Positions 2 through 16,645 of a stretch of DNA of 24,758 bases are shown in pieces. Origin of the DNA: a virus (taxonomy: Duplodnaviria; Heunggongvirae; Uroviricota; Caudoviricetes); IMG/VR virus record IMGVR_UViG_2698536536_000002. One strand, written 5' to 3'. How positions within the stretch are numbered: the stretch's first letter is position 1; every line of letters begins with the position of its first letter. A program made the translations under genes and the position numbers. The notes below the pieces were generated by a model. It was not told where the DNA came from. It searched no databases and was given only the letters and a program-made list of their open reading frames with translations.

Positions 2-1297
2 TTAATTTTTCATTGCTTCGTTATGGGGCATGGTTGGGGCAAACTCGCTTAACTGTGTATTTAACAAAGCTACCTGTGCATTATTGTTTTCAGACATCCA
101 TTTTCCGTATACCTGAAATACCATTTGCGCATCTGCATGGCCCATCTGGTTTGCTATAAATGCCGGGTTAGCACCAGCTGTCAGCGACCAGCAGGCATAA
201 GTATGTCTCGACTGATATGATTTTCGATGGCGGAGTCCGGCACGTTTTATCGCTGCGTCCCACATCTGCCTTATTGAGTCAACGGTAAAATGGTCACCAT
301 AATTTTTTACTCTCGCTGACACTTCAGGTTGAAAAACAAAGGTGCATTTTTGTTTTTCTGTTCTGCCATACTCTCTGAGGTGAACATCAATGATATGCTC
401 TTTGCTCAGTCTCGTTAATGTCATCTGACTCCGGAGAGCGTCGATTGCTGGCTTAATAAGATGAATGACCCGATTGGTTCCCGCCTGTGTTTTTGGTACC
501 GTGAAACGGTCTTTTGCTAAATTTCTCCTGATCATCATTGTTCCATTTTTCAGATCTATGTCCTCCCATCCAAGTGCACACAGCTCACCAGGGCGAACGC
601 CAGTATAAACAGAAACACACCATAAATTTTTTGCTTGCTGATTTCTGCACGCATCGATAAGACGGATAAATTCTTCCCGCGAAAGAGGATCCGGAATGGT
701 TCTTGATTCCTTTAATGGCGAGATCCCCTTAAACGGATTATCTGCCAGGTAACCGTTATCAACACCAAACTGGAACACGGCGTTAAGATTTGTCATGTAA
801 TTATTTACAGTTACAGCCGATCTCCCTGGTTGTGTAACAATATAGTTACTTTTGGGGATCTGGTATCCAGTCAGTAACTCTTTACGAACCTCCAGTAATT
901 TTTCTTTATTAATCGATGAGGCAAGATTTTTTTCACCGATTATGCTCAGGATATTTTTGATGACGGCACGGTATGTGTTGAGTGATGTTTTGGCGACTTC
1001 AGTTTCTTTCAGTGCCAGAAATTTTTCAGCCAGTTCTTTTATGGTTAAATCTTGTCGGGCCTCACCAAATTTTTCCAGATTGCGTGAGGAGGGAAACTGT
1101 TTTGCATAGTCGAAAACACCAGTTTTTATTGCGTAACAAACAGAGGAGCGTAGTTCACCTGCAACGCGCCTGTTTTTTGCTGTGTCAGGAACCCCCAGGT
1201 TTTCCCTGACTCTTACGCCTTTATAAACAAACCAGATACGTAATTTCCCTCCATGGTTTTCCACGCCTGTCGGATATTTCATTTCAACTTCTCTCAT
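2..1297 (-). CDS. Tyrosine-type phage integrase (lambda Int family)
   Basis: 431-aa ORF. C-terminal catalytic region carries the typical R...HxxR...Y signature context (…SRHTYACWSLTAGANPAFIANQMGHADAQMVFQVYGKWM…). Sits at the prophage edge, followed by an xis-like gene. Stop codon lies at window positions 2-4. Confidence 0.85.
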   Translation of the reverse strand: MREVEMKYPTGVENHGGKLRIWFVYKGVRVRENLGVPDTAKNRRVAGELRSSVCYAIKTGVFDYAKQFPSSRNLEKFGEARQDLTIKELAEKFLALKETEVAKTSLNTYRAVIKNILSIIGEKNLASSINKEKLLEVRKELLTGYQIPKSNYIVTQPGRSAVTVNNYMTNLNAVFQFGVDNGYLADNPFKGISPLKESRTIPDPLSREEFIRLIDACRNQQAKNLWCVSVYTGVRPGELCALGWEDIDLKNGTMMIRRNLAKDRFTVPKTQAGTNRVIHLIKPAIDALRSQMTLTRLSKEHIIDVHLREYGRTEKQKCTFVFQPEVSARVKNYGDHFTVDSIRQMWDAAIKRAGLRHRKSYQSRHTYACWSLTAGANPAFIANQMGHADAQMVFQVYGKWMSENNNAQVALLNTQLSEFAPTMPHNEAMKN

Positions 1298-1640: not shown

Positions 1641-4112
1641 TTAAGAATCAGCCTGACTCGGGATCAGTTTTTGCCAGATAACTGAAACGTATTTTGCCTG
1701 GTAACGGGCGTCATCAAGTGCATTATGGCGCTCACCTTCGAATGGAATAGCCGTTCTGGCATCGAAGTCTATGGCTTTCCCCAGCTCAACGATTGTGCGT
1801 ACATCGCGATCGTTGTAGTAACGCCACGGGCAGGGGATCCCCTGCCGTTCGTATGAACGGCGCAAAATCGTGTTGTCGAAGTTGGCTCCATTTCCCCAGA
1901 CCTGAACAAAAAATTCACCGGAGTTTTCGTCGATAAATTCCCGCAATTGTAACAGTGCATCATCTAACGGGATTTCATCGGTCATAATGGCAGATTGCGC
2001 TTCGCGTGATTGCTTAAGCCACCATTTAATGGTGTCCCGATCAATGACTCCGCCAGCAGTTTCCAGATCGATAGTCTTACTAAATTCCGGTCCCATATCT
2101 CCGGTTTGCGGATCGAAAAATATTGCACCTATTGAGATGATCGGGGCATCAGGATTTTTTCCCATGGTTTCAAGGTCGATCATTAGATGGTCACACGTCC
2201 TGCTGGTGGATGTGATTTCTGGATGACCGTTCACCTTAAATGAGTGATCTGCCGTCTCGCCAGTTTCATTATCGCTATCGTGATGCTGATTGCCGCCAGT
2301 GTTCTCCTTGTGTGGATGTTCAGCGCCTTCCATTTCCTCCGGATCATCTTCCTGAACTTCAACCTGATACTCTTCATCGAATGTTTCCTGGTATGTTGCG
2401 TCGCCCATTACCGCGCCACAATCAGGGCAGTTGCCGCCGCCGGTCTGACCGCAGGCGGTGCAGACTTTTTCCACTTCCTGTTGCGCCACTGATTCAGGCT
2501 GTTTCGTTTCTGGCTCGTTTTGTAACGCATTTGGGCTGTTTTGTTCCGCTTTTTGGTAGTTCCGTTCCGATTCATGCTGGTTCTGGTTCACAGAATCGCG
2601 GGTCTGGATCCCCTTGACCCATTTCGGATCATTAGGGTCGCTAATCCCCTCAACAAATTCACCACGTGATGCAGCAAGCAACTTATCGGCGTCAGGCTGG
2701 CTGATATTGGCTGCCTGCATAATTTTGTTTACTTCGTCAGCGGTAACTTTTATCGGCTCTGGTTGTGCGGTCGTGTCAGATGCACCAGTATTTTGTTGTG
2801 AACCTGAGTATGTACCGTTTTTTCGGGCAAAATATTCTTCTTTTGTGATTTCAGTGGCGCCAGCAGCCAGTGCCTTATCCAGACCAGAAAGTTTGTTTGC
2901 GCGACCGTATTTTTCGCCGACCTTATCTGCGAAGAGGAAATAGAACGGCCCCTCACGCTCTACAGATGGTTCGACTTCCACTTTGCATTCGGTTTTTTCG
3001 TTGTCCGGAATTGCCGTTTCCACTGCATCAGTTTCTGGTACTGGCGACGAGAGAGTATCAGTTGCGCTCTGATTTCTTCCTTCATCTTCAAACACGCCCT
3101 TTGTAGTCAGGTATTCAGTAATGTATTTGTTCAGTGCCACAGGGTCTTTGTGAATGTCGATCGGACGTTCACGGACAAGGCCAAAAATAGTCTGGCGGTC
3201 GTAGCGAAGGGCATCAGGCTGTTTGCGCATTGATGCCGAGATACGCTTCCAGTCTTCGCGGTCGTTATCGATAACTTCATTTTTTGCCCAGCGATGGATG
3301 CTGCCGTCAATGTTTCCGGCATCCACATCACCAGGCCAGAGAGCGTAGGCCAGTTCGTCATCCAGTGTTTTCCATGTCTGCTTGTATTCGCGATGAATGG
3401 CAGCAATGACCGGGCTGATTTTTCCTGTTGAATTTTCAGTGTACTGTTGATTGGCTCTGGCGCGGGCGAGATCAACAACAGACGTGTATTTTCCGGTTTC
3501 CTTGCGTTCACCTTCGCGACGTTTTTTCCAGATGCGCATCTCTGCCTGAATTTCGGGCCATTTAGCACCAGGAATACATTTATGCTTAACCCACCCAATG
3601 GCGTGCAACTTAAGCTCCGGATACATGGCGTTAACTTCTGGCATTTTCATCAACGCTTCAACGATATGTCCGTCGAATGTTGCCATGTCTTCCTGCAATA
3701 ATTCCTGTGCGCTAATAACCATATCAACGGTGATGTTTTCACATGTGTCGAACTTAACCATGACAGCGTTCTGTACTTCAGGGGCCAGCTTGTCAAAAAT
3801 GACGTTCATCGGATCGGATTCAGTCTCAACCGGGACAAAAGAAGCAGACTCCTCATCCCAGCGGTTTTCCTGCATATATTCAGCATCCCATGAATCGAGG
3901 GCAGGGCGGGGTATGCCAGGTTTATCCTCGCAGACAATAAATTTATAAGCGCAGTCCTGAGCAGCCGGATAATGTTCCAGGAATTGCCAGTGAAATTTTG
4001 CTCGAGCACGGCGTTCGTCGCCAGCTTCAATGGCTGTGGCTACAGCCACAGCGCCTTCTTCCCTTGTTGCCAGTTCGTCAGGAATAGCGGCGCAAATAAA
4101 GACTTTACTCAT
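1641..4112 (-). CDS. Prophage exonuclease (exodeoxyribonuclease VIII-like) with C-terminal DEDDh 3'-5' exonuclease domain
   Basis: 823-aa ORF. C-terminus shows Exo I (MIDLETMG), Exo II (WGNGANFDN) and Exo III (HNALDDARYQA) motifs of DnaQ-like exonucleases. The centre is an acidic low-complexity linker with a CxxC…CxxC zinc ribbon (CTACGQTGGGNCPDCG). Position matches the exonuclease gene downstream of the dicB operon in Qin-type prophages (remembered as the ydfE fragment in K-12). Confidence 0.7.
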   Translation of the reverse strand: MSKVFICAAIPDELATREEGAVAVATAIEAGDERRARAKFHWQFLEHYPAAQDCAYKFIVCEDKPGIPRPALDSWDAEYMQENRWDEESASFVPVETESDPMNVIFDKLAPEVQNAVMVKFDTCENITVDMVISAQELLQEDMATFDGHIVEALMKMPEVNAMYPELKLHAIGWVKHKCIPGAKWPEIQAEMRIWKKRREGERKETGKYTSVVDLARARANQQYTENSTGKISPVIAAIHREYKQTWKTLDDELAYALWPGDVDAGNIDGSIHRWAKNEVIDNDREDWKRISASMRKQPDALRYDRQTIFGLVRERPIDIHKDPVALNKYITEYLTTKGVFEDEGRNQSATDTLSSPVPETDAVETAIPDNEKTECKVEVEPSVEREGPFYFLFADKVGEKYGRANKLSGLDKALAAGATEITKEEYFARKNGTYSGSQQNTGASDTTAQPEPIKVTADEVNKIMQAANISQPDADKLLAASRGEFVEGISDPNDPKWVKGIQTRDSVNQNQHESERNYQKAEQNSPNALQNEPETKQPESVAQQEVEKVCTACGQTGGGNCPDCGAVMGDATYQETFDEEYQVEVQEDDPEEMEGAEHPHKENTGGNQHHDSDNETGETADHSFKVNGHPEITSTSRTCDHLMIDLETMGKNPDAPIISIGAIFFDPQTGDMGPEFSKTIDLETAGGVIDRDTIKWWLKQSREAQSAIMTDEIPLDDALLQLREFIDENSGEFFVQVWGNGANFDNTILRRSYERQGIPCPWRYYNDRDVRTIVELGKAIDFDARTAIPFEGERHNALDDARYQAKYVSVIWQKLIPSQADS

Positions 4113-4751: not shown

Positions 4752-4809
4752 AAAAACGGCGGCAGAGCAGTCACGGAGTAAAACTGATACCGCCAAACGT
4801 CACCAGAAA
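4752..4809 (-). ncRNA. dicF: DicF-like small regulatory RNA (ftsZ-targeting antisense sRNA)
   Basis: Minus-strand sequence UUUCUGGUGACGUUUGGCGGUAUCAGUUUUACUCCGUGACUGCUCUGCCGCCGUUUUU (reverse complement of 4752-4809) matches the remembered DicF sequence. It ends in GC-rich sequence plus a U-run and sits between the YdfB/C-like ORF and dicB, as in the Qin dicB operon. Exact ends are approximate. Confidence 0.55.
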
Positions 4810-6098: not shown

Positions 6099-6518
6099 TT
6101 AAGAGGCTTTTTGTTTTTTCTTTCGTGCTAACTCTTCGTAAATTGCATTGTACTTCTGTTTTTTCTCTTCAAGAGTTTTTAAAAGTTCATCTGTCTCACT
6201 GTCAGGGAGCTCGTCCAGAAGGTCAATGATGATTTTTTGTCTTGGATTTAACTCCTGATAGAAACGTACCTGTCCACTTTCTTCTGTATCCTCTCCCAAA
6301 AGATAGGTTGGTGTTGTTCCTATTAGTGTTGCTAATTCCCTTAATTTCTCCCGGCGAGGAATTGTTTCGCCATTAAACCATTTGCTAACCGCTTTTGGTG
6401 TTAATTTCATTCGACGGGCAATTTCTGCCTGCCTTCCATGTTGTTCATAACCAGCGTTTTCACAGGCTAGCGCAAGCCTACTGGCGAACTCTTTACGCGC
6501 TTTATCTTCATGAACCAT
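6099..6518 (-). CDS. Prophage repressor, HTH XRE family (DicA/RacR-like)
   Basis: 139 aa. N-terminal helix-turn-helix (…QAEIARRMKLTPKAVSKWFNGETIP…) and an acidic/coiled C-terminal region. Divergent from a Cro-like gene. Confidence 0.8.
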   Translation of the reverse strand: MVHEDKARKEFASRLALACENAGYEQHGRQAEIARRMKLTPKAVSKWFNGETIPRREKLRELATLIGTTPTYLLGEDTEESGQVRFYQELNPRQKIIIDLLDELPDSETDELLKTLEEKKQKYNAIYEELARKKKQKAS

Positions 6519-6597
6519 AAGTTCAATGATATTCGCTCTTGAATGTACTGTCAGTTCTGTTATAGCATGTACTCAAAGTTCACATTGTGAGGGTGAT
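6519..6597. promoter_or_regulatory. Divergent promoter/operator region between repressor and cro-like gene
   Basis: ATGTACT at 6543-6549 and 6566-6572. Candidate -35 TTGAAT (6539-6544) and -10 TATAGC (6561-6566) for rightward transcription. GAGGGTG RBS before the ATG at 6598. Confidence 0.45.
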
Positions 6598-6852
6598 ATG
6601 AACCAGAAAACACTTGAAGATGTAATCAAAACTGTTCGCGTTGCTGTTGTGGCCGACGTTTGTGGTGTCAGCCAAAGAGCAATCTATAAATGGATGGATA
6701 ACGGAAAATTGCCTCGCACAGAATATACCGGCGAAACAAATTACGCTGAAAAAATCGCTCTTGCATCAAACGGATTATTTTCTGCCGATGCAATTTTAAC
6801 TATTGGCAGGAATAAAACTACTACGAAAAAGCTGATGGGAGTTGATTCATGA
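6598..6852 (+). CDS. Cro-like / YdaS-like HTH protein
   Basis: 84 aa from the ATG at 6598, with an HTH-like segment (VADVCGVSQRAIYKWMDNGKLP). Divergent from the repressor. Stop overlaps the next gene's start (ATGA). Confidence 0.7.
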   Translation: MNQKTLEDVIKTVRVAVVADVCGVSQRAIYKWMDNGKLPRTEYTGETNYAEKIALASNGLFSADAILTIGRNKTTTKKLMGVDS

Positions 6853-7274
6853 AAATCAAGCATGAACACATCCGCATGGCGATGAATGCCTGGGCGCATC
6901 CGGACGGCGAAAAAGTACCGGCTGCGAAAATTACCAAAGCGTATTTCGAGCTGGGAATGACGTTCCCGGAACTGTATGACGACAGCCATCCGGAAGCCCT
7001 GGCTCGCAATACCCAGAAAATTTTCCGCTGGGTAGAGAAAGACACCCCTGATGCAGTTGAAAAAATTCAGGCGTTGTTACCAGCGATCGAAAAGGCAATG
7101 CCACCTTTGCTGGTGGCCAGAATGCGCAGCCACAGTTCAGCTTATTTTCGGGAACTGGTGGAGACGCGGGAGCGACTGGTGAGAGACGCTGATGATTTTG
7201 TCGCAGTGGCAATCGCCGGTTTCAATCAGATGAACCGTGGTGGCCCGGCAGGAAATGCTGTGGCAGTACATTGA
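6849..7274 (+). CDS. YdaT-like protein (putative toxic/regulatory partner of the Cro-like gene)
   Basis: 141 aa beginning MKIKHEHI…, translationally coupled to the upstream gene by a 4-bp overlap. Gene order repressor / cro-like / this gene mirrors the RacR-YdaS-YdaT arrangement as I recall it. Confidence 0.6.
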   Translation: MKIKHEHIRMAMNAWAHPDGEKVPAAKITKAYFELGMTFPELYDDSHPEALARNTQKIFRWVEKDTPDAVEKIQALLPAIEKAMPPLLVARMRSHSSAYFRELVETRERLVRDADDFVAVAIAGFNQMNRGGPAGNAVAVH

Positions 7275-7345: not shown

Positions 7346-8416
7346 ATGGCTAACGCCTGGCTCAGATTATGGCATGACATGCCAAATGACCCTAAGTGGC
7401 GAACAATTGCCAGGGTGTCAGGGCAGCCAATTGCAACAGTGATGGCAGTGTATATCCACCTCCTGGTGAGCGCGTCACGAAATGTCACGCGAGGTCACAT
7501 TGATGTCACGACAGAAGATTTGGCAAGTGCGCTCGACGTGACAGAAGAGGTAATTGATTCAATTTTGCAGACGATGCAGGGGCGGGTACTTGATGGTGAT
7601 TTAATCACTGGATGGGAAAAACGCCAGGTGCTGAAAGAGGACAACGGCAATATTTCGCAAACCGCAAAATCTCCGGCAGAGCGCAAGAGGGCGCAGCGAG
7701 AGAGGGAAAGAAAGCGGGAACAAAATGGCGATTGTCACGGCGAGTCACGAAATGTCACGCACATGTCACGACGAGTCACGACAGATAAAGATACAGATAA
7801 AGATACAGATCAAGAAGATCAAAACACTATGGTCCATGGCGTAAAAAACGCCACGAACCAGGCAGGGGATGTTCAGACCGTCACTCCTGGCCAGCCCGCA
7901 GGCACGACACCGGAAGCCGATTCAGCGTATGCGCTGAAAGCCGATTCGGGCGCTGTGCAGCAGGTGATGACCGCAAGGCAGGAGCAATCACACCAACTTC
8001 AGCAGCCTGAAGCCGATTCCGCCATTCAGCGGGAAGCCGATCGGGTAGTCCCGGAAAACACCGGGCAGCCTGTGGGACGAGTGGATTATCCTGATGTGTT
8101 CGAACAGGTCTGGCGGGAATACCCGTTGCGTGCCGGGGCAAACCCGAAGAAATCCGCTTTCAGTGCCTGGAAAGCCAGATTACGCGAGGGGGTGCCACCA
8201 GAGGCCATGCTGGATGGCGTGAGGCGTTACGCAAGATACCTTGCGGCTACCGGGAAAACGGGAACGGAATTTGTTCAGCGAGCGACGACGTTTTTTGGAC
8301 CGGACCGGCATTTTGAAAACCCCTGGCTGCTCCCGGTAAGCGGCACGAACAACCAGCGTTGTGTGAATCATATTTCTGAACCGGATAACGAAATTCCGCC
8401 GGGCTTCAGGGGGTAA
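7346..8416 (+). CDS. Replication initiation protein (YdaU-like, DUF1376-type N-terminal domain) with embedded origin iterons
   Basis: ATG at 7346 with GAGGTG RBS (the track's earlier start at 7340 is GTG). N-terminus (…WLRLWHDMPNDPKWRTIARVSG…) resembles phage replication-initiator N-domains. The gene contains two clusters of phased GTCAC repeats. Confidence 0.65.
   Translation: MANAWLRLWHDMPNDPKWRTIARVSGQPIATVMAVYIHLLVSASRNVTRGHIDVTTEDLASALDVTEEVIDSILQTMQGRVLDGDLITGWEKRQVLKEDNGNISQTAKSPAERKRAQRERERKREQNGDCHGESRNVTHMSRRVTTDKDTDKDTDQEDQNTMVHGVKNATNQAGDVQTVTPGQPAGTTPEADSAYALKADSGAVQQVMTARQEQSHQLQQPEADSAIQREADRVVPENTGQPVGRVDYPDVFEQVWREYPLRAGANPKKSAFSAWKARLREGVPPEAMLDGVRRYARYLAATGKTGTEFVQRATTFFGPDRHFENPWLLPVSGTNNQRCVNHISEPDNEIPPGFRG
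7474..7509. repeat. Iteron cluster 1: four GTCAC(G) repeats at ~10-bp phasing
   Basis: GTCAC at 7474, 7484, 7494 and 7505, read directly from the sequence. Confidence 0.6.
7734..7810. repeat. Iteron cluster 2: five GTCACG repeats at exactly 10-bp phasing, followed by an A-rich tandem repeat (putative ori)
   Basis: GTCAC at 7734, 7744, 7754, 7764 and 7774. Then GATAAAGATACA-GATAAAGATACA-GAT (7783-7810) and an A-rich stretch. Confidence 0.6.
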
Positions 8417-8456: not shown

Positions 8457-8873
8457 GTGGCAAAAGTTTTTACACAAGAAGAGCGGGAAAAAATTAAAGG
8501 ACAGGTTCTTGAACTCGTACGCCAGAGTGGGCGCGAGACGTTACGACAACTGGAAGCTAAAACTGGGGCAACAAGATATCTGATGAGCGTTCTGGCCAGA
8601 GAGCTGGTTGCCAGTGGCGATGTATACAATTCTGGCTACGGGTTATTCCCGTCTGAACAGGCGCGTAAGGACTGGCAAAATGCCCGTAAAAAGCTCTCAA
8701 GGGCAAAGCTGAAGAAACCATCTGCGGTTGATCCGGACCTTATCTGGTCATTACCTGATGGAGAAATACGTCGTTACGACAGGCGTCATAATATGATTTG
8801 TACTGAGTGTCGTAAAAGCGAAGTTATGCAGCGCATATTGTCGTTTTATCAGGGGGATGTTCGGTTTTATTGA
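8457..8873 (+). CDS. Hypothetical protein (138 aa)
   Basis: GTG start at 8457 with CAGGAGGG RBS. No recognisable motif. Follows the replication gene on the same strand. Confidence 0.5.
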   Translation: MAKVFTQEEREKIKGQVLELVRQSGRETLRQLEAKTGATRYLMSVLARELVASGDVYNSGYGLFPSEQARKDWQNARKKLSRAKLKKPSAVDPDLIWSLPDGEIRRYDRRHNMICTECRKSEVMQRILSFYQGDVRFY

Positions 8874-9140: not shown

Positions 9141-10538
9141 TTATGCTTCATGTTGCTTTTTGAGATCGCTTCTAGCATAGCTCCACTCAATAATGTTGTC
9201 GGGTCGTTGCTGATCGAAAAGGATACGGGATTCAATACCATTACCTAAAAAGCTGGTATTCCCATCTACGTAAGAAGCTATCCCTTGTGAACCAACACGA
9301 AGAATATTTTCTAATGGCTGCTTTGTTCTTGCTGCATCGCTAAGGAGATATAAACCCGGGTACGTTTTGTTAGCACGGTGAAAAAAAAGTTCATTGTCAA
9401 AACACATGACGATGATTATTTGTCCCGACATGAGATCGGAGAGCATTTCAGTTGGCAGATGCAAACTCATAAATGGTCGAGACAAAGGGTCAAAGAATGA
9501 ATCATTTATATTCACAACAGGGCTTTTTATACCGAGACTATCCATCCATCCATTGAAGGCAACAAAGCCCATTTCAGAATCACGGTACATACCTAAGAAC
9601 AAACATTCATCAATAGTATCAATTGCCCAATTTTTTCCTCCGCGAATAATCTCCCACATTTTAACTAAGCGGTGGGTATAAAATTCAGACGGATGATCTA
9701 TCTCATTGATTTTAACTTTAGACTGATGAAAGTTGTCAAAGCCCTCGCCAGTATTAATCGCCTCCAGAACATTCATGCCACGAATGATTTGCCTTTTTAT
9801 GCGATTAAATTGCTTAACATCATTATCAGGCATATTGTTAATGAAGTTTTCTTCAAAGTGCGGACATTCTGAGATAACAGAAAATTCAGCAGCTTCATAA
9901 AGCTCATTATTCTTTTCACCTGTTTTAACTTCCACGAGCTGGAAGCCATCCAGTAGATTAAAGGTGACTAAATCTCCCACATGAACAAATGTGCTCATGT
10001 CAGAGACAATCGCTACGGAGTGTTTGTCCTGGTTGATAAGATCGGCTGCGACCATAGAATCAATTATGTTATCTTCTGATAGATTGTCATTGCTTGCATT
10101 AATAGGTAAACGCCGCAAACTAGAGTGTTCTTCATCAAGAATGCTCCAAATTATTGAGTCAATACAACGGCGAAGAATAAGAATTTCAAATTTTTTTAAA
10201 CTTATTTCATCAATACACTTTTCTTTATTTTCTTTATCCTTGTTTCGATGGTGCTCTTTTTTTTCAGTTTCCAATCTTTTTATATCTCTCAGCCGAATAA
10301 TAATCTCAAAAGATATGATTTTTTGTGAGTCTTTCCAATTTTTGAGACAGGTTTCATACTCTGCAAGAAAATCCTCATCATTGGAAGGTAGTTCTTGAAT
10401 TGGATTCCCTCCCCTTATCATTTTGGCAAGTGCATGCATTAAAGATACATAATGAGGTGATAAAATTGTCCAAAACTTCCTAAACGGTTTGTACTTTTCA
10501 AGAAAAGTTGACTCATCAGTATAATTCATCATAACCAA
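9141..10538 (-). CDS. Hypothetical 465-aa protein, possible PD-(D/E)xK-type nuclease; downstream partner of the AbiH-like gene
   Basis: Long AT-rich ORF with GAGG RBS. Central motif …AIVSDMSTFVHVGDLVTFNLLDGFQLVEVKTGEK… fits the D…(D/E)xK pattern of restriction-like nucleases (inference only). Co-oriented 83 bp downstream of the AbiH-like gene. Confidence 0.7.
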   Translation of the reverse strand: MVMMNYTDESTFLEKYKPFRKFWTILSPHYVSLMHALAKMIRGGNPIQELPSNDEDFLAEYETCLKNWKDSQKIISFEIIIRLRDIKRLETEKKEHHRNKDKENKEKCIDEISLKKFEILILRRCIDSIIWSILDEEHSSLRRLPINASNDNLSEDNIIDSMVAADLINQDKHSVAIVSDMSTFVHVGDLVTFNLLDGFQLVEVKTGEKNNELYEAAEFSVISECPHFEENFINNMPDNDVKQFNRIKRQIIRGMNVLEAINTGEGFDNFHQSKVKINEIDHPSEFYTHRLVKMWEIIRGGKNWAIDTIDECLFLGMYRDSEMGFVAFNGWMDSLGIKSPVVNINDSFFDPLSRPFMSLHLPTEMLSDLMSGQIIIVMCFDNELFFHRANKTYPGLYLLSDAARTKQPLENILRVGSQGIASYVDGNTSFLGNGIESRILFDQQRPDNIIEWSYARSDLKKQHEA

Positions 10539-10621: not shown

Positions 10622-11491
10622 TCAGATATCTTCATACTGTACGTAAGAAATATTTGAGCCTCTGATACCATAATCTTCTAAACTGCCTGATTTTTTCTCA
10701 CCTCTATATAAAGCAACTATCCATCGAGCATTTTCTTGGATGCTTTTATTTATTTCAGTAAAGTATTCACCGTCAACTTCGGCGAGCGAGTGGCCTAAAA
10801 CGATGACCTCGTCCACATTTTTAAGCGATGAGAAAAAAACGTTTTCTTCTTTAATTATGTCTTCGCTGGGCTTGAATGTATTACCGAAGTATTCGTTTAT
10901 TCTGTCGTATGCCTCTGCTATTCTTGTATCTTGATCCGGTCCTATATATGGATTTAGTGACTTTTCCACCCTAAAACTATGACCAAGTATGAGATCGTCA
11001 TCGTAACTACAATTGCCGTGAATATGTATGATTTGCTCGTCTGGAACGGCATAGATCTGCTGCAAGGTATTTGTATAATTAAATGAAAAATAGATGCTTT
11101 CTCTTGGTATGGGCGGGATGTATTGCTTAGGATTGTAAGCATCGGCTATGTTAATCCCTTTAACCCAATCAGCGAATTGCTCCTTCAAACGAGCTGACAG
11201 CATTTGTGTGATTTTATTTACTTCATATTGGTAATCGTGATGATAAGCATCGCTCCAATCATCGGTATTGTATGAAGCCAAAAATATCTCACTGTTTTGA
11301 AGGATAAGCTCATAATCAATTTCACCTAAAGCATTTTCTAACTCATTCCACTCGTCCCCAGCAGGAATGTATTCTTCTATCGCGTCATATAGATCTTGGT
11401 CATTTTTTTCTACATACGACTTAAAGTGCTTGTATCCTGTTGGTAAGCCATGACGCATGTCAAATCCATTTCCTATTATGTAAAGCCTCAT
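10622..11491 (-). CDS. AbiH-like abortive-infection family protein
   Basis: From the ATG at 11491 (AAGGGA RBS) the product begins MRLYIIGNGFDMRHGLPTGYKHF…, which matches the N-terminal signature I associate with AbiH-family proteins. AT-rich codon usage. The track's longer ORF begins at 11542. Confidence 0.6.
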   Translation of the reverse strand: MRLYIIGNGFDMRHGLPTGYKHFKSYVEKNDQDLYDAIEEYIPAGDEWNELENALGEIDYELILQNSEIFLASYNTDDWSDAYHHDYQYEVNKITQMLSARLKEQFADWVKGINIADAYNPKQYIPPIPRESIYFSFNYTNTLQQIYAVPDEQIIHIHGNCSYDDDLILGHSFRVEKSLNPYIGPDQDTRIAEAYDRINEYFGNTFKPSEDIIKEENVFFSSLKNVDEVIVLGHSLAEVDGEYFTEINKSIQENARWIVALYRGEKKSGSLEDYGIRGSNISYVQYEDI

Positions 11492-11807
11492 TGTTTTTCC
11501 CTTAGTCGAATTGTATAAAAATACTAACATGGCCTGCTCCACGTTGACTACTATCCCCTCCTTTGAGTAATGCCTTCATCAGATGTAACAACATTTGCGA
11601 GCTTCCACAGTTCGCTCAAAGCGGACTAGAAGGTTAGCTTGCGTCGGACTTGGCGTATTTAAAGAAGTGCTGGTGGAGACTGGTTGTTGTGTTCCATTTC
11701 TACAGAACAAAATCACAGAAACTATACCCAATAGTTATATTGAATCAATGATGAGACAGCCTCATATTTATCAGGACTGGTGTACGTCCAATACAGGAGG
11801 TTGTCGT

Positions 11808-11897: not shown

Positions 11898-12106
11898 TTA
11901 TATTGGCGAGGTGACGTGAGTTAAGTAGAATTGCTGCGGGTGCTTGAGGCTATCTGCCTCAGGCATGAACACCAAAGGCAGATAGAGAAAAGCCCCAGTT
12001 AACATTACGCGTCCTGCAAGACGCTTAACATTAATCTGAGGCCAATTTCATGCTAGACACATGTAGGTTAGCCTCTTACGTGCCGAAAGGCAAGGAGAAG
12101 CAGGCT

Positions 12107-12262
12107 ATGAAGCAGCAAAAGGCGATGTTAATCGCCCTGATCGTCATCTGTTTAACCGTCATAGTGACGGCACTGGTAACGAGGAAAGACCTCTGCGAGG
12201 TACGAATCCGAACCGGCCAGACGGAGGTCGCTGTCTTCACAGCTTACGAACCTGAGGAGTAA
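12107..12262 (+). CDS. hokD: Hok/Gef-family type I toxin (HokD/RelF-like)
   Basis: 51-aa product MKQQKAMLIALIVICLTVIVTALVTRKDLCEVRIRTGQTEVAVFTAYEPEE matches the remembered HokD/RelF sequence. AAGGAG RBS at 12092-12097. Flanked by a 10-bp-stem hairpin upstream (11950-11985) and a 9-bp hairpin (12270-12291) plus terminator downstream. Confidence 0.85.
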   Translation: MKQQKAMLIALIVICLTVIVTALVTRKDLCEVRIRTGQTEVAVFTAYEPEE

Positions 12263-15387: not shown

Positions 15388-15463
15388 ATTCTGCTCCCGG
15401 CCCTTTAGCTCAGTGGTGAGAGCGAGCGACTCATAATCGCCAGGTCGCTGGTTCAAATCCAGC
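15388..15463 (+). tRNA. tRNA with CAU anticodon (tRNA-Ile2/ileZ-like, or Met)
   Basis: 76-nt cloverleaf drawn by hand: acceptor GGCCCTT/AAGGGCC, D-stem GCTC/GAGC, anticodon loop CTCATAA, T-stem GCTGG/CCAGC, T-loop TTCAAAT, 3' ACCA. Confidence 0.85.
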
Positions 15464-15564
15464 AAGGGCCACCATCACAAACCGCCATTAGCTTATCAGG
15501 AAGAGCAGACGACACGATAACAGGGTTGTTGGTGCGGGGGCGGGTCCCCGATGGCGGTCCATTA

Positions 15565-15641
15565 TCGGTATTCAGCGTTGTTAGCTCAGCCGGACAGAGC
15601 AATTGCCTTCTAAGCAATCGGTCACTGGTTCGAATCCAGTA
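15565..15641 (+). tRNA. tRNA-Arg (UCU anticodon; argN/argO/argU-like)
   Basis: 77-nt cloverleaf: acceptor GCGTTGT/ACAGCGC (one G-U), anticodon stem ATTGC/GCAAT with loop CTTCTAA, T-stem ACTGG/CCAGT, T-loop TTCGAAT, 3' GCCA. Confidence 0.85.
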
Positions 15642-15761
15642 CAGCGCGCCATATTCATTCTTCCAGATTCCTTCCGGCAGAGCCTTATACTGGAATATAC
15701 CTGGCTCAGGATATTGTTGAAAACATAATATGTTTGTCAAAAATAAAAGTTCTGTTAAGTA

Positions 15762-16115: not shown

Positions 16116-16645
16116 ATACATATCTGGATTATCACCTGTTACGGTAAAAAGTGATTGCTTACTGTTTTTGTGAATGGCATTGCAGCAGCCGGATAATGTC
16201 AGTGCTGGCTGACGGTGTGCTGGTGGCGGGTGTGGTGGTTGCTTTCCCGTTGCTGAAAAAGAAAACGCCAGACTGTTAGCCGGGTATCAGTTAGCGGGAG
16301 AAATTTTTAAATACTTCACAATTCAGGCGGTTGACTGTTCTCTGGTTTGCGGGGAGTTTGTTAAAAGAAACTGGCATGGTGAATCCCCCTGTGCGGAGGG
16401 GCAATCAGCGAGTAGGTATATGGGATAATCGCGGATTCAGGTGCTGGTACTGAATTCACCGGGAGGCACCCGGCACCATGCACTTAAATAGATTCTCTCC
16501 ACATTATGGATATTCTTTCAGAATATCCCACGCAGACTTTGTGTAAATGTTAACAAATGTGCGTTTTATTTGATCTGATTCGCTGTTTGAGCGTCCAAAA
16601 CAACGGTATATATAATCCTTTACTATATGACATATGTGAGAAAAA

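Follow-up and report, generated by a model that had tools for sequence, protein, structure and literature searches.

The analysed stretch of DNA (the window) comprises 24,758 nucleotides of the virus record IMGVR_UViG_2698536536_000002 (Caudoviricetes) and represents an Escherichia/Shigella-type lambdoid prophage. At positions 7346-8416 lies an initiator gene, inside which two arrays of short direct repeats (iterons) are followed by an A-rich tract. On the basis of comparative analyses, this locus is probably the replication origin of the prophage, lying within the gene of its own initiator and read by the protein that this gene encodes. This interpretation, put forward in an earlier note made from the letters of the window, is supported by the comparative evidence presented here. 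Both arrays, a single inverted copy of the repeat and the A-rich tract are all located inside the open reading frame (ORF) at 7346-8416. The elements of the locus, with positions in the protein given in amino acids (aa), are as follows.

7346-8416, plus strand: initiator gene of 356 aa, "phage replisome organizer" (ORF and translation; phrog_3729)
7346-7630, plus strand: N-terminal winged-helix domain, presumed iteron reader (approximately aa 1-95)
7474-7510, plus strand: iteron array 1, four direct GTCAC(G/A) units starting at 7474, 7484, 7494 and 7505; encodes aa 43-55
7537-7542, minus strand: inverted GTCACG, single copy; codons D64-V65-T66, in the turn of the helix-turn-helix
7673-7726, plus strand: basic helix aa 110-127 (ERKRAQRERERKRE) of the structural model, candidate second DNA-contacting element, just upstream of array 2
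7734-7780, plus strand: iteron array 2, five direct GTCACG units starting at 7734, 7744, 7754, 7765 and 7775; encodes aa 130-145
7781-7839, plus strand: purine/A-rich tract, candidate DNA unwinding element; (ACAGATAAAGAT)x2.9 at 7781-7815, then GATCAAGAAGATCAAAACAC
8090-8416, plus strand: C-terminal helical domain and tail, aa 249-356, presumed host-replisome recruitment module

Phased iteron arrays and nucleotide-level selection

Array 1 begins 128 nt into the gene, approximately 230 bp upstream of array 2, which occupies gene nt 389-435. The units of array 1 are GTCACG at 7474, 7484 and 7505 and GTCACA at 7494, separated by 10, 10 and 11 bp, and the sequence confirms the four GTCAC positions reported earlier for this cluster. 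For the second cluster, which had been described as having an exact 10-bp spacing, the first three positions (7734, 7744 and 7754) were correct, but the last two (7764 and 7774) were each off by one, the true starts being 7765 and 7775, and the actual spacing is 10, 10, 11 and 10 bp. The tandem repeat and A-rich tract said to follow this cluster were recovered both by Tandem Repeats Finder (TRF) and as a minimum in GC content. The inverted copy at 7537-7542 was absent from the earlier note.

Nine of the 14 GTCACG hexamers of the window are located in 7474-7780. Both occurrences of the phased pattern GTCAC-N5-GTCAC-N5-GTCAC in the window are at this locus (expected 0.00, 100 shuffles), and TRF detected a period-10 array at 7734-7783. 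Seven records of temperate Escherichia phages, among them vB_EcoS-640R1, Evi, and Tritos, contain DNA nearly identical to that of the window (97-99.9%). Over the 40 kb of the complete Evi genome, phased GTCAC pairs are confined to the initiator gene (5 versus 0.07 expected). No second, distant iteron cluster in the style of SPP1 oriR was present in the window or in the complete Evi genome.

With the ATG at 7346 as reference, the nine direct cores begin at codon positions 3, 1, 2 and 1 in array 1 and 2, 3, 1, 3 and 1 in array 2. They are translated as (A)SR, VT, GH and VT in the former and as CH(G), (E)SR, VT, (M)SR and VT in the latter, and since one hexamer is read in three frames, a repeated codon string is impossible. 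Codon tests were performed on 19 non-redundant GTCAC-type genes sharing approximately 55-75% amino-acid identity. In array 1, V47 was encoded by GTC in 19/19 genes (versus 20 of the 101 valines elsewhere in the same domains), T48 by ACG in 19/19 (13/58 elsewhere), G50 by GGT in 19/19 (23/107 elsewhere), H51 by CAC in 18/18 (21/43 elsewhere), and S44 by TCA in 18/19 (23/142 elsewhere), with p values from 1e-11 to 5e-5. Likewise, V54 was GTC in 19/19 and T55 was ACG in 18/19 genes; the spacer codon R49 varied between CGT, CGC, CGA, and CGG. Mean pairwise synonymous identity was 0.82 at codons 44-55 versus 0.39 (saturated) in the rest of the domain (Mann-Whitney p=9e-6). Specifically, it was 1.00 at codons 47, 48, 50, 51 and 54, and 0.29 and 0.34 at the spacer codons 49 and 52, respectively. 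Codon V65, in the inverted copy, reached 0.99. Both arrays are under nucleotide-level selection, and these patterns indicate that they are almost certainly functional protein-binding DNA arrays.

One alternative is that the repeats are a by-product of coding, that is, a repeated SRNVT peptide motif or neutral slippage in a tolerant linker. SRNVT is indeed present twice (aa 44-48 and 134-138), both arrays fall where the protein forms a loop or is disordered, so that repeats could drift there, and copy number differs between close relatives. However, the core is translated in three frames, as (A/E/M)SR, VT, GH and CH, and its synonymous sites are invariant in 19 divergent genes in which neighbouring codons are saturated. 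Moreover, the spacing is held at 10-11 bp, which is no multiple of 3, and from one proteobacterial class to another the two arrays keep or change the motif together. The earlier note had proposed a comparison with homologous prophages, and in these the repeats are kept beyond coding need. Its concern that repeated codons might explain the repeats fails on both the codon phases and the synonymous sites. An artefact of protein-level repeats or codons is thereby ruled out, and an origin of the arrays as a by-product of coding is barely credible.

Family-wide conservation, the A-rich tract and module exchange

Homologues of the N-terminal domain, found by that domain alone, were retrieved from 60 loci of alpha-, beta- and gamma-proteobacteria, and 54 of these genes were read through. 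The two-array layout, with the hexamer once per helical turn, was present in approximately 43 of the 54, one array being located near gene nt 129-160 and the other near nt 360-450. In 44 genes, successive cores were 10 bp apart in 164 instances and 11 bp apart in 37, and the remaining intervals were mostly of 20-21 bp (i.e., one unit skipped). Across the family, cores occur in all three codon phases. The inverted core is found at the same place in most GTCAC-type homologues. Three genes (L039, L053, and L058) have array 2 without array 1, and in two others (L057 and L059, from Stenotrophomonas and Dyella) array 1 is shifted to nt 87-107. This makes array 2 the near-universal core, and array 1 a frequent but movable accessory.

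Three iteron types were distinguished within the family. The GTCAC(G) type is found in Escherichia, Serratia, Rahnella, Pseudomonas, Bordetella, Aquitalea, Chromobacterium, and others; the GTAAC(G) type in Pantoea, Enterobacter, Marinobacter, Sphingomonas, and one metagenome-assembled genome; and the (C)GAACG(C) type in many beta- and alpha-proteobacteria. In all of the approximately 47 array-bearing genes, both arrays are of the same type. The close relatives L027 (Erwinia) and L023/L025 (Pantoea, Enterobacter) differ by GTCACGTGAC versus GTAACGTTAC, a change that is mirrored in both palindrome halves and repeated in both arrays. A parallel change of eight to twelve copies would be sensible only if a single reader served all of them. 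The signature of the basic helix also follows the iteron type, being ERKRxQRERE in GTCAC genes, ERAKxWRE in GAACG genes, and RVxxYREKK in most GTAAC genes, which is an association only.

Two members of the family, L044:2501-3688 (from a Serratia metagenome-assembled genome) and L056:2501-3802 (Pantoea), keep the N-terminal domain. After approximately aa 110, an inserted segment (YVYYV...GISRNPWAR...) with no match in Pfam replaces the basic helix, the iteron linker and the arrays. The records of the Pseudomonas phages phita81A, 5399, 5371, and Marin (H23-H26) list two "hypothetical proteins" for the homologous region, and in them the repeat region may be splitting the gene calls.

Immediately beyond array 2 of the window, TRF identified a period-12 array of ACAGATAAAGAT at 7781-7815 (2.9 copies, 95% matches). 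The 60-nt GC minimum of the gene lies at 7780-7839 (0.35), where the AT skew is approximately +0.5 (A over T), and no other part of the gene is less stable than the tract at 7781-7839. Genes of all three iteron types have a purine-rich hexamer repeat on the coding strand within 2-3 nt of the last array 2 unit. Its hexamers are (GATAAA)n, (GATACA)n or (GAGAAG)n, and the tract takes the forms AGATAAAGATAAAG, AGATACAGATACAG or AGAGAAGAGGAG, which encode DK, DT or EE/RE repeats. The conserved adjacency points to array 2 and the adjoining tract as the candidate core origin. A DnaA box was also considered and set aside: ATATCCACC at 7452-7460 agrees, by eye only, with 7/9 positions of TTATCCACA and consists of ordinary codons (VYIHL).

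The tract also coincides with a change of partners between protein modules. P0070, from O157 prophages, has aa 1-144 in common with the window protein at 86% identity and then diverges into a different C-terminal part, with a Pfam DnaT-like domain on record. Conversely, P0032 (1198 members) shares aa 158-356 at 96% identity and has a different N-terminus. That P0032 and P0070 both switch sequence at the tract marks it as the joint between an origin-plus-reader module and a C-terminal module, and recombination between modules seems to occur there. No comparable arrays are present in the Stx-phage 75/02 initiator, which has only the C-terminal part in common with the window protein. In a natural E. 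coli variant, P0020 (302 aa), a deletion extends from just past the first array 2 units through the A-rich tract (columns ~168-226 of alignment A1), and this variant is probably a replication-dead prophage copy.

The initiator, known systems and a proposed mechanism

The full length of the initiator matches phrog_3729, "replication initiation protein" (E=5e-256), and aa 128-356 match phrog_1701, "DnaD-like helicase loader" (E=5e-62). At NCBI it belongs to a 99%-identity cluster of 5786 members named "phage replisome organizer", and the gene labels in the seven near-identical phage records include "replication protein O", "primosomal protein I", and "N-terminal phage replisome organiser". No Pfam family, including those of replisome organizers, was matched at E<=0.01. 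In the AlphaFold model (mean predicted local distance difference test score, pLDDT, of 55.6, with folded parts at 70-88), helices 3-14, 16-25 and 29-45 are followed by a low-confidence loop at 46-55 and by a winged helix-turn-helix made of helices 56-63 and 67-77 and short strands. Next come a disordered segment (84-108), the basic helix (110-127), a disordered linker (128-244), and a helical C-terminal domain (250-314). Array 1 encodes the end of helix 3 and the loop 46-55, and array 2 and the tract encode the start of the disordered linker. According to the model, the DNA elements are thus placed where the protein is predicted to tolerate imposed sequence, and in relatives the loop accepts 7-codon insertions (21 nt, two units). 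A fold search pointed to a DnaD-N-terminal-like winged helix for the N-terminal domain. Its query was the full-length model, and because this model is half disordered, only the winged-helix assignment is usable.

The last 20-25 residues of the protein (ISEPDNEIPPGFRG) match the C-termini of DnaT and of YdaU from the Rac prophage. The tail itself (8375-8416, aa 343-356) is nearly identical to the ends of host DnaT and Rac YdaU, a resemblance suggesting that it may be a short docking motif for a host replication protein. Several identities were considered for the whole protein and rejected. DnaT model NF002770 gave 19.3 bits against a cutoff of 201, at model positions 156-179 only, and DnaT chains in PDB match the last ~25 residues only (E=0.35-0.54). 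Homology to lambda O, implied by the "replication protein O" label, received an hhalign probability of 0.15% (A1 versus lambda O, E=0.4), and homology to SPP1 G38P one of 0.19% (A1 versus G38P). As for YdaU/DUF1376, there was no match to DUF1376 or any other Pfam family, and BLASTP against MG1655 YdaU aligned a 19-residue C-terminal tail (E=8e-6) and low-complexity linker only. The "YdaU-like" label of the earlier note was dropped, since that tail of ~19 residues and the low-complexity linker are all that the two proteins have in common.

The closest parallels in organisation are found in phages lambda and SPP1. The lambda origin lies within gene O (PMC6022878), where the annotated iterons, four 18-nt units 20-24 bp apart, occupy O gene nt 349-433. 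Other lambdoid phages likewise have origins within O-like genes. In both lambda and the window, the origin or candidate origin is placed in the initiator gene just past the N-terminal DNA-binding domain (nt 349-433 and nt 389-435, respectively), and downstream of the iterons a flexible linker is encoded by an A-rich, strand-asymmetric tract. In both, the origin-specific N-terminal part and the C-terminal part recombine as separate modules, and the gene lies downstream of cro and cII-like genes in the rightward early operon. The window differs from lambda in its 10-11-bp units with a 6-bp core, one per helical turn, in having an additional array, together with the inverted copy, where the DNA-binding domain itself is encoded, and in that no P-like or DnaC-like loader gene follows. 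Of the parallel with lambda drawn in the earlier note, the architecture holds (iterons and an A-rich tract at a similar position in the initiator gene), but there is no detectable sequence homology.

SPP1 oriL, in gene 38, combines direct repeats bound by G38P (AB boxes) with an adjacent AT-rich unwinding element, and it is an experimentally defined origin that is sufficient for in vitro replication (PMC5737612, PMC6316719). The repeats of gene 38 lie at approximately gene nt 360-450. Like G38P, the initiator of the window lacks an AAA+ domain and is annotated as a replisome organizer. Its N-domain may have a DnaD-N-terminal-like fold, and its C-terminal part matches the PHROG "DnaD-like helicase loader". 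SPP1 also possesses a distant second origin (oriR) and encodes a loader and a helicase (G39P, G40P), whereas here the second array is ~230 bp away in the same gene, no phage helicase or loader is present, and Evi has no distant cluster. The short 10-11-bp unit, the array in the coding region of the DNA-binding domain and the lack of a phage loader are what sets this locus apart from lambda and SPP1.

Two separated arrays of one initiator-binding repeat are also a property of iteron plasmids and of phage P4. In P1 (incC/incA), F (incB/incC) and P4 (ori/crr), one array lies in the origin and the other modulates initiation through looping, handcuffing or titration. The arrays of those replicons are intergenic or flank rep, whereas here both are inside the initiator coding sequence. 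Unit size also differs, being ~19-22 bp in iteron plasmids, 8 bp in P4 (where ori and crr are kilobases apart), and 10-11 bp here. Rac YdaU shares the operon slot (ydaS/cro, ydaT, initiator, DUF977), the tail PD..IPPGFRG, and a linker AAAGATACAGATAAAGATCT element after four CAGATGTTCAA-like repeats. It differs in its unrelated N-terminal domain, in the sequence and spacing of its repeats, and in that the DnaC-like ydaV follows ydaU. The presence of the AAAGATACAGATAAAGATCT tract and the tail in ydaU suggests that the A-rich tract is common to different initiator families. In E. coli K-12 Rac, ydaU (L063:2120-2977) has its repeats at L063:2472-2563 and its tract at ~2600-2625, which seem to represent the layout of oriJ, a known Rac origin that has been mapped only poorly; this layout was not found in the literature on oriJ searched here.

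In the mechanism that we propose, the N-terminal winged-helix domain, perhaps together with the basic helix at aa 110-127, would bind one unit per helical turn on one face of the DNA. An oligomeric nucleoprotein complex would build up on array 2, and the adjacent low-stability tract at 7781-7839 would then melt. Array 1 could be auxiliary, joining the complex by looping or wrapping, or alternatively could influence the expression of the initiator through feedback, as a roadblock or titration site. The C-terminal domain and the DnaT-like tail would recruit host DnaB-DnaC. The initiator is the sole replication protein of the replication module, and no helicase or loader gene was found beside it or in the complete Evi genome; it is because both lack such genes that recruitment from the host is proposed. 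Rightward early transcription through cro and the ydaT-like gene would cross the origin, as in lambda.

Binding of the initiator to the arrays might instead be purely regulatory (an autoregulatory roadblock, titration, or handcuffing as at P1/F incA/incC), with the true origin elsewhere. Protein bound at array 1, only 128 nt into the gene, would block elongation, some lineages dispense with this array, and a pair of separate arrays of which one is regulatory is classic in iteron plasmids. On the other hand, neither the window nor the complete Evi genome holds any other phased GTCAC cluster, and the coupling of array 2 to the A-rich tract is tight and universal, although a pure operator would have no need of such a tract. 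Further, array 2 is positioned like the origins that experiments have defined in lambda O and in gene 38 of SPP1 (PMC5737612). We consider this explanation unlikely for the locus as a whole, but it may hold for array 1 alone, where it is compatible with an origin at array 2. A different possibility is that the arrays bind another protein, such as a host factor, the YdaT/CII-like protein, DUF977, or a packaging or partition protein, and that their location is incidental. The products of the neighbouring genes, YdaT-like upstream and DUF977 downstream, are likewise candidates for DNA binding, and the identity of the reader has been deduced from sequence. Nevertheless, the arrays and the N-terminal domain of the initiator have stayed together through mosaic recombination, at 60 loci in three proteobacterial classes, the iteron type shifts with the lineages of that domain, and a host factor would leave three alternative motifs unexplained. 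A reader other than the initiator is therefore very unlikely.

Several points weigh against an origin read by its own initiator. The case is built wholly from comparative sequence analysis and analogy, and the lack of detectable homology to lambda O or G38P makes that analogy architectural only. Matches to oriC-type 13-mers (GATCTnTTnTTTT) in the A-rich tract are not beyond chance, with one 2-mismatch match at 7799-7811 and 16 versus 13.2 expected across the window, which is not significant. Array 1, which may be either auxiliary or regulatory, is missing in L039, L053, and L058. No fixed helical phase was found between the arrays, whose gaps range from 123 to 319 bp with scattered remainders modulo 10.5. 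Finally, arrays are absent or degenerate in L029, L032, L043, L047, and L048.

A broader model extends the origin reading to the whole family, and it is offered as possible but rather doubtful in its entirety. Under this model, the family would consist of pan-proteobacterial single-protein phage initiators in which the origin is an "overlapping code", with one array in the surface loop of the reader and another in its linker. Specificity would have switched at least three times (GTCAC, GTAAC, GAACG), with all copies changing in concert. The tract would be both an unwinding element and a universal recombination joint, common even to the unrelated YdaU/oriJ initiators, at which origin-recognition modules are shuffled onto helicase-recruitment modules. 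The arrays would loop across ~230 bp into one complex, and host DnaB would be loaded without a phage loader.

Genomic setting and significance

The initiator gene follows the immunity/early region of the prophage. The other features of the window are as follows.

2-1297, minus strand: integrase
1641-4112, minus strand: exonuclease
4757-4808, minus strand: DicF RNA (Rfam)
6099-6518, minus strand: CI-like repressor, immunity/early region
6526-6852: Cro-like gene, immunity/early region
6849-7274: YdaT/CII-like gene, immunity/early region
8457-8873: DUF977/Ren-like gene, directly beyond the initiator gene
To the right of the DUF977/Ren-like gene: hok/sok, DUF968, antiterminator Q, and two tRNAs
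11938-12112, plus strand: sok antitoxin RNA (Rfam)
15399-15471 and 15575-15648, plus strand: two tRNAs just downstream of antiterminator Q (Rfam)
16345-16535, plus strand: small RNA STnc100 (Rfam)

Between the replication module and hok/sok, the minus strand carries an AbiH abortive-infection gene at 10622-11542 (Pfam E=8e-69) and, beside it, a 465-aa ORF at 9141-10538 with no match in Pfam, PHROGs or NCBIfam. Together they may form a defence island.

Full-text literature searches (for a GTCACG iteron, and for replisome organizer iterons in prophages) returned no description of this origin. It is apparently undescribed and its split layout is unusual, although an origin of this kind is textbook material and its principle would not surprise a specialist. 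The locus neatly illustrates how DNA-binding sites can constrain a protein sequence. The conservation of peptides such as ASRNVTRGH and CHDESRNVT is due solely to the DNA that encodes them, and both annotators and evolutionary analyses run the danger of misreading such peptides as protein-level conservation.

Prophages of E. coli and Shigella very commonly encode initiators of this type, and O157 prophages contain related N-terminal modules. A known origin is a handle for measuring and blocking prophage replication, and the locus would provide a compact, single-protein cassette of origin and initiator. Since three natural iteron specificities occur with matched proteins, the rules of recognition could be read off from them. 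The family-wide conservation, the three specificities and the overlapping code would together make these prophage initiators a useful and directly testable system.

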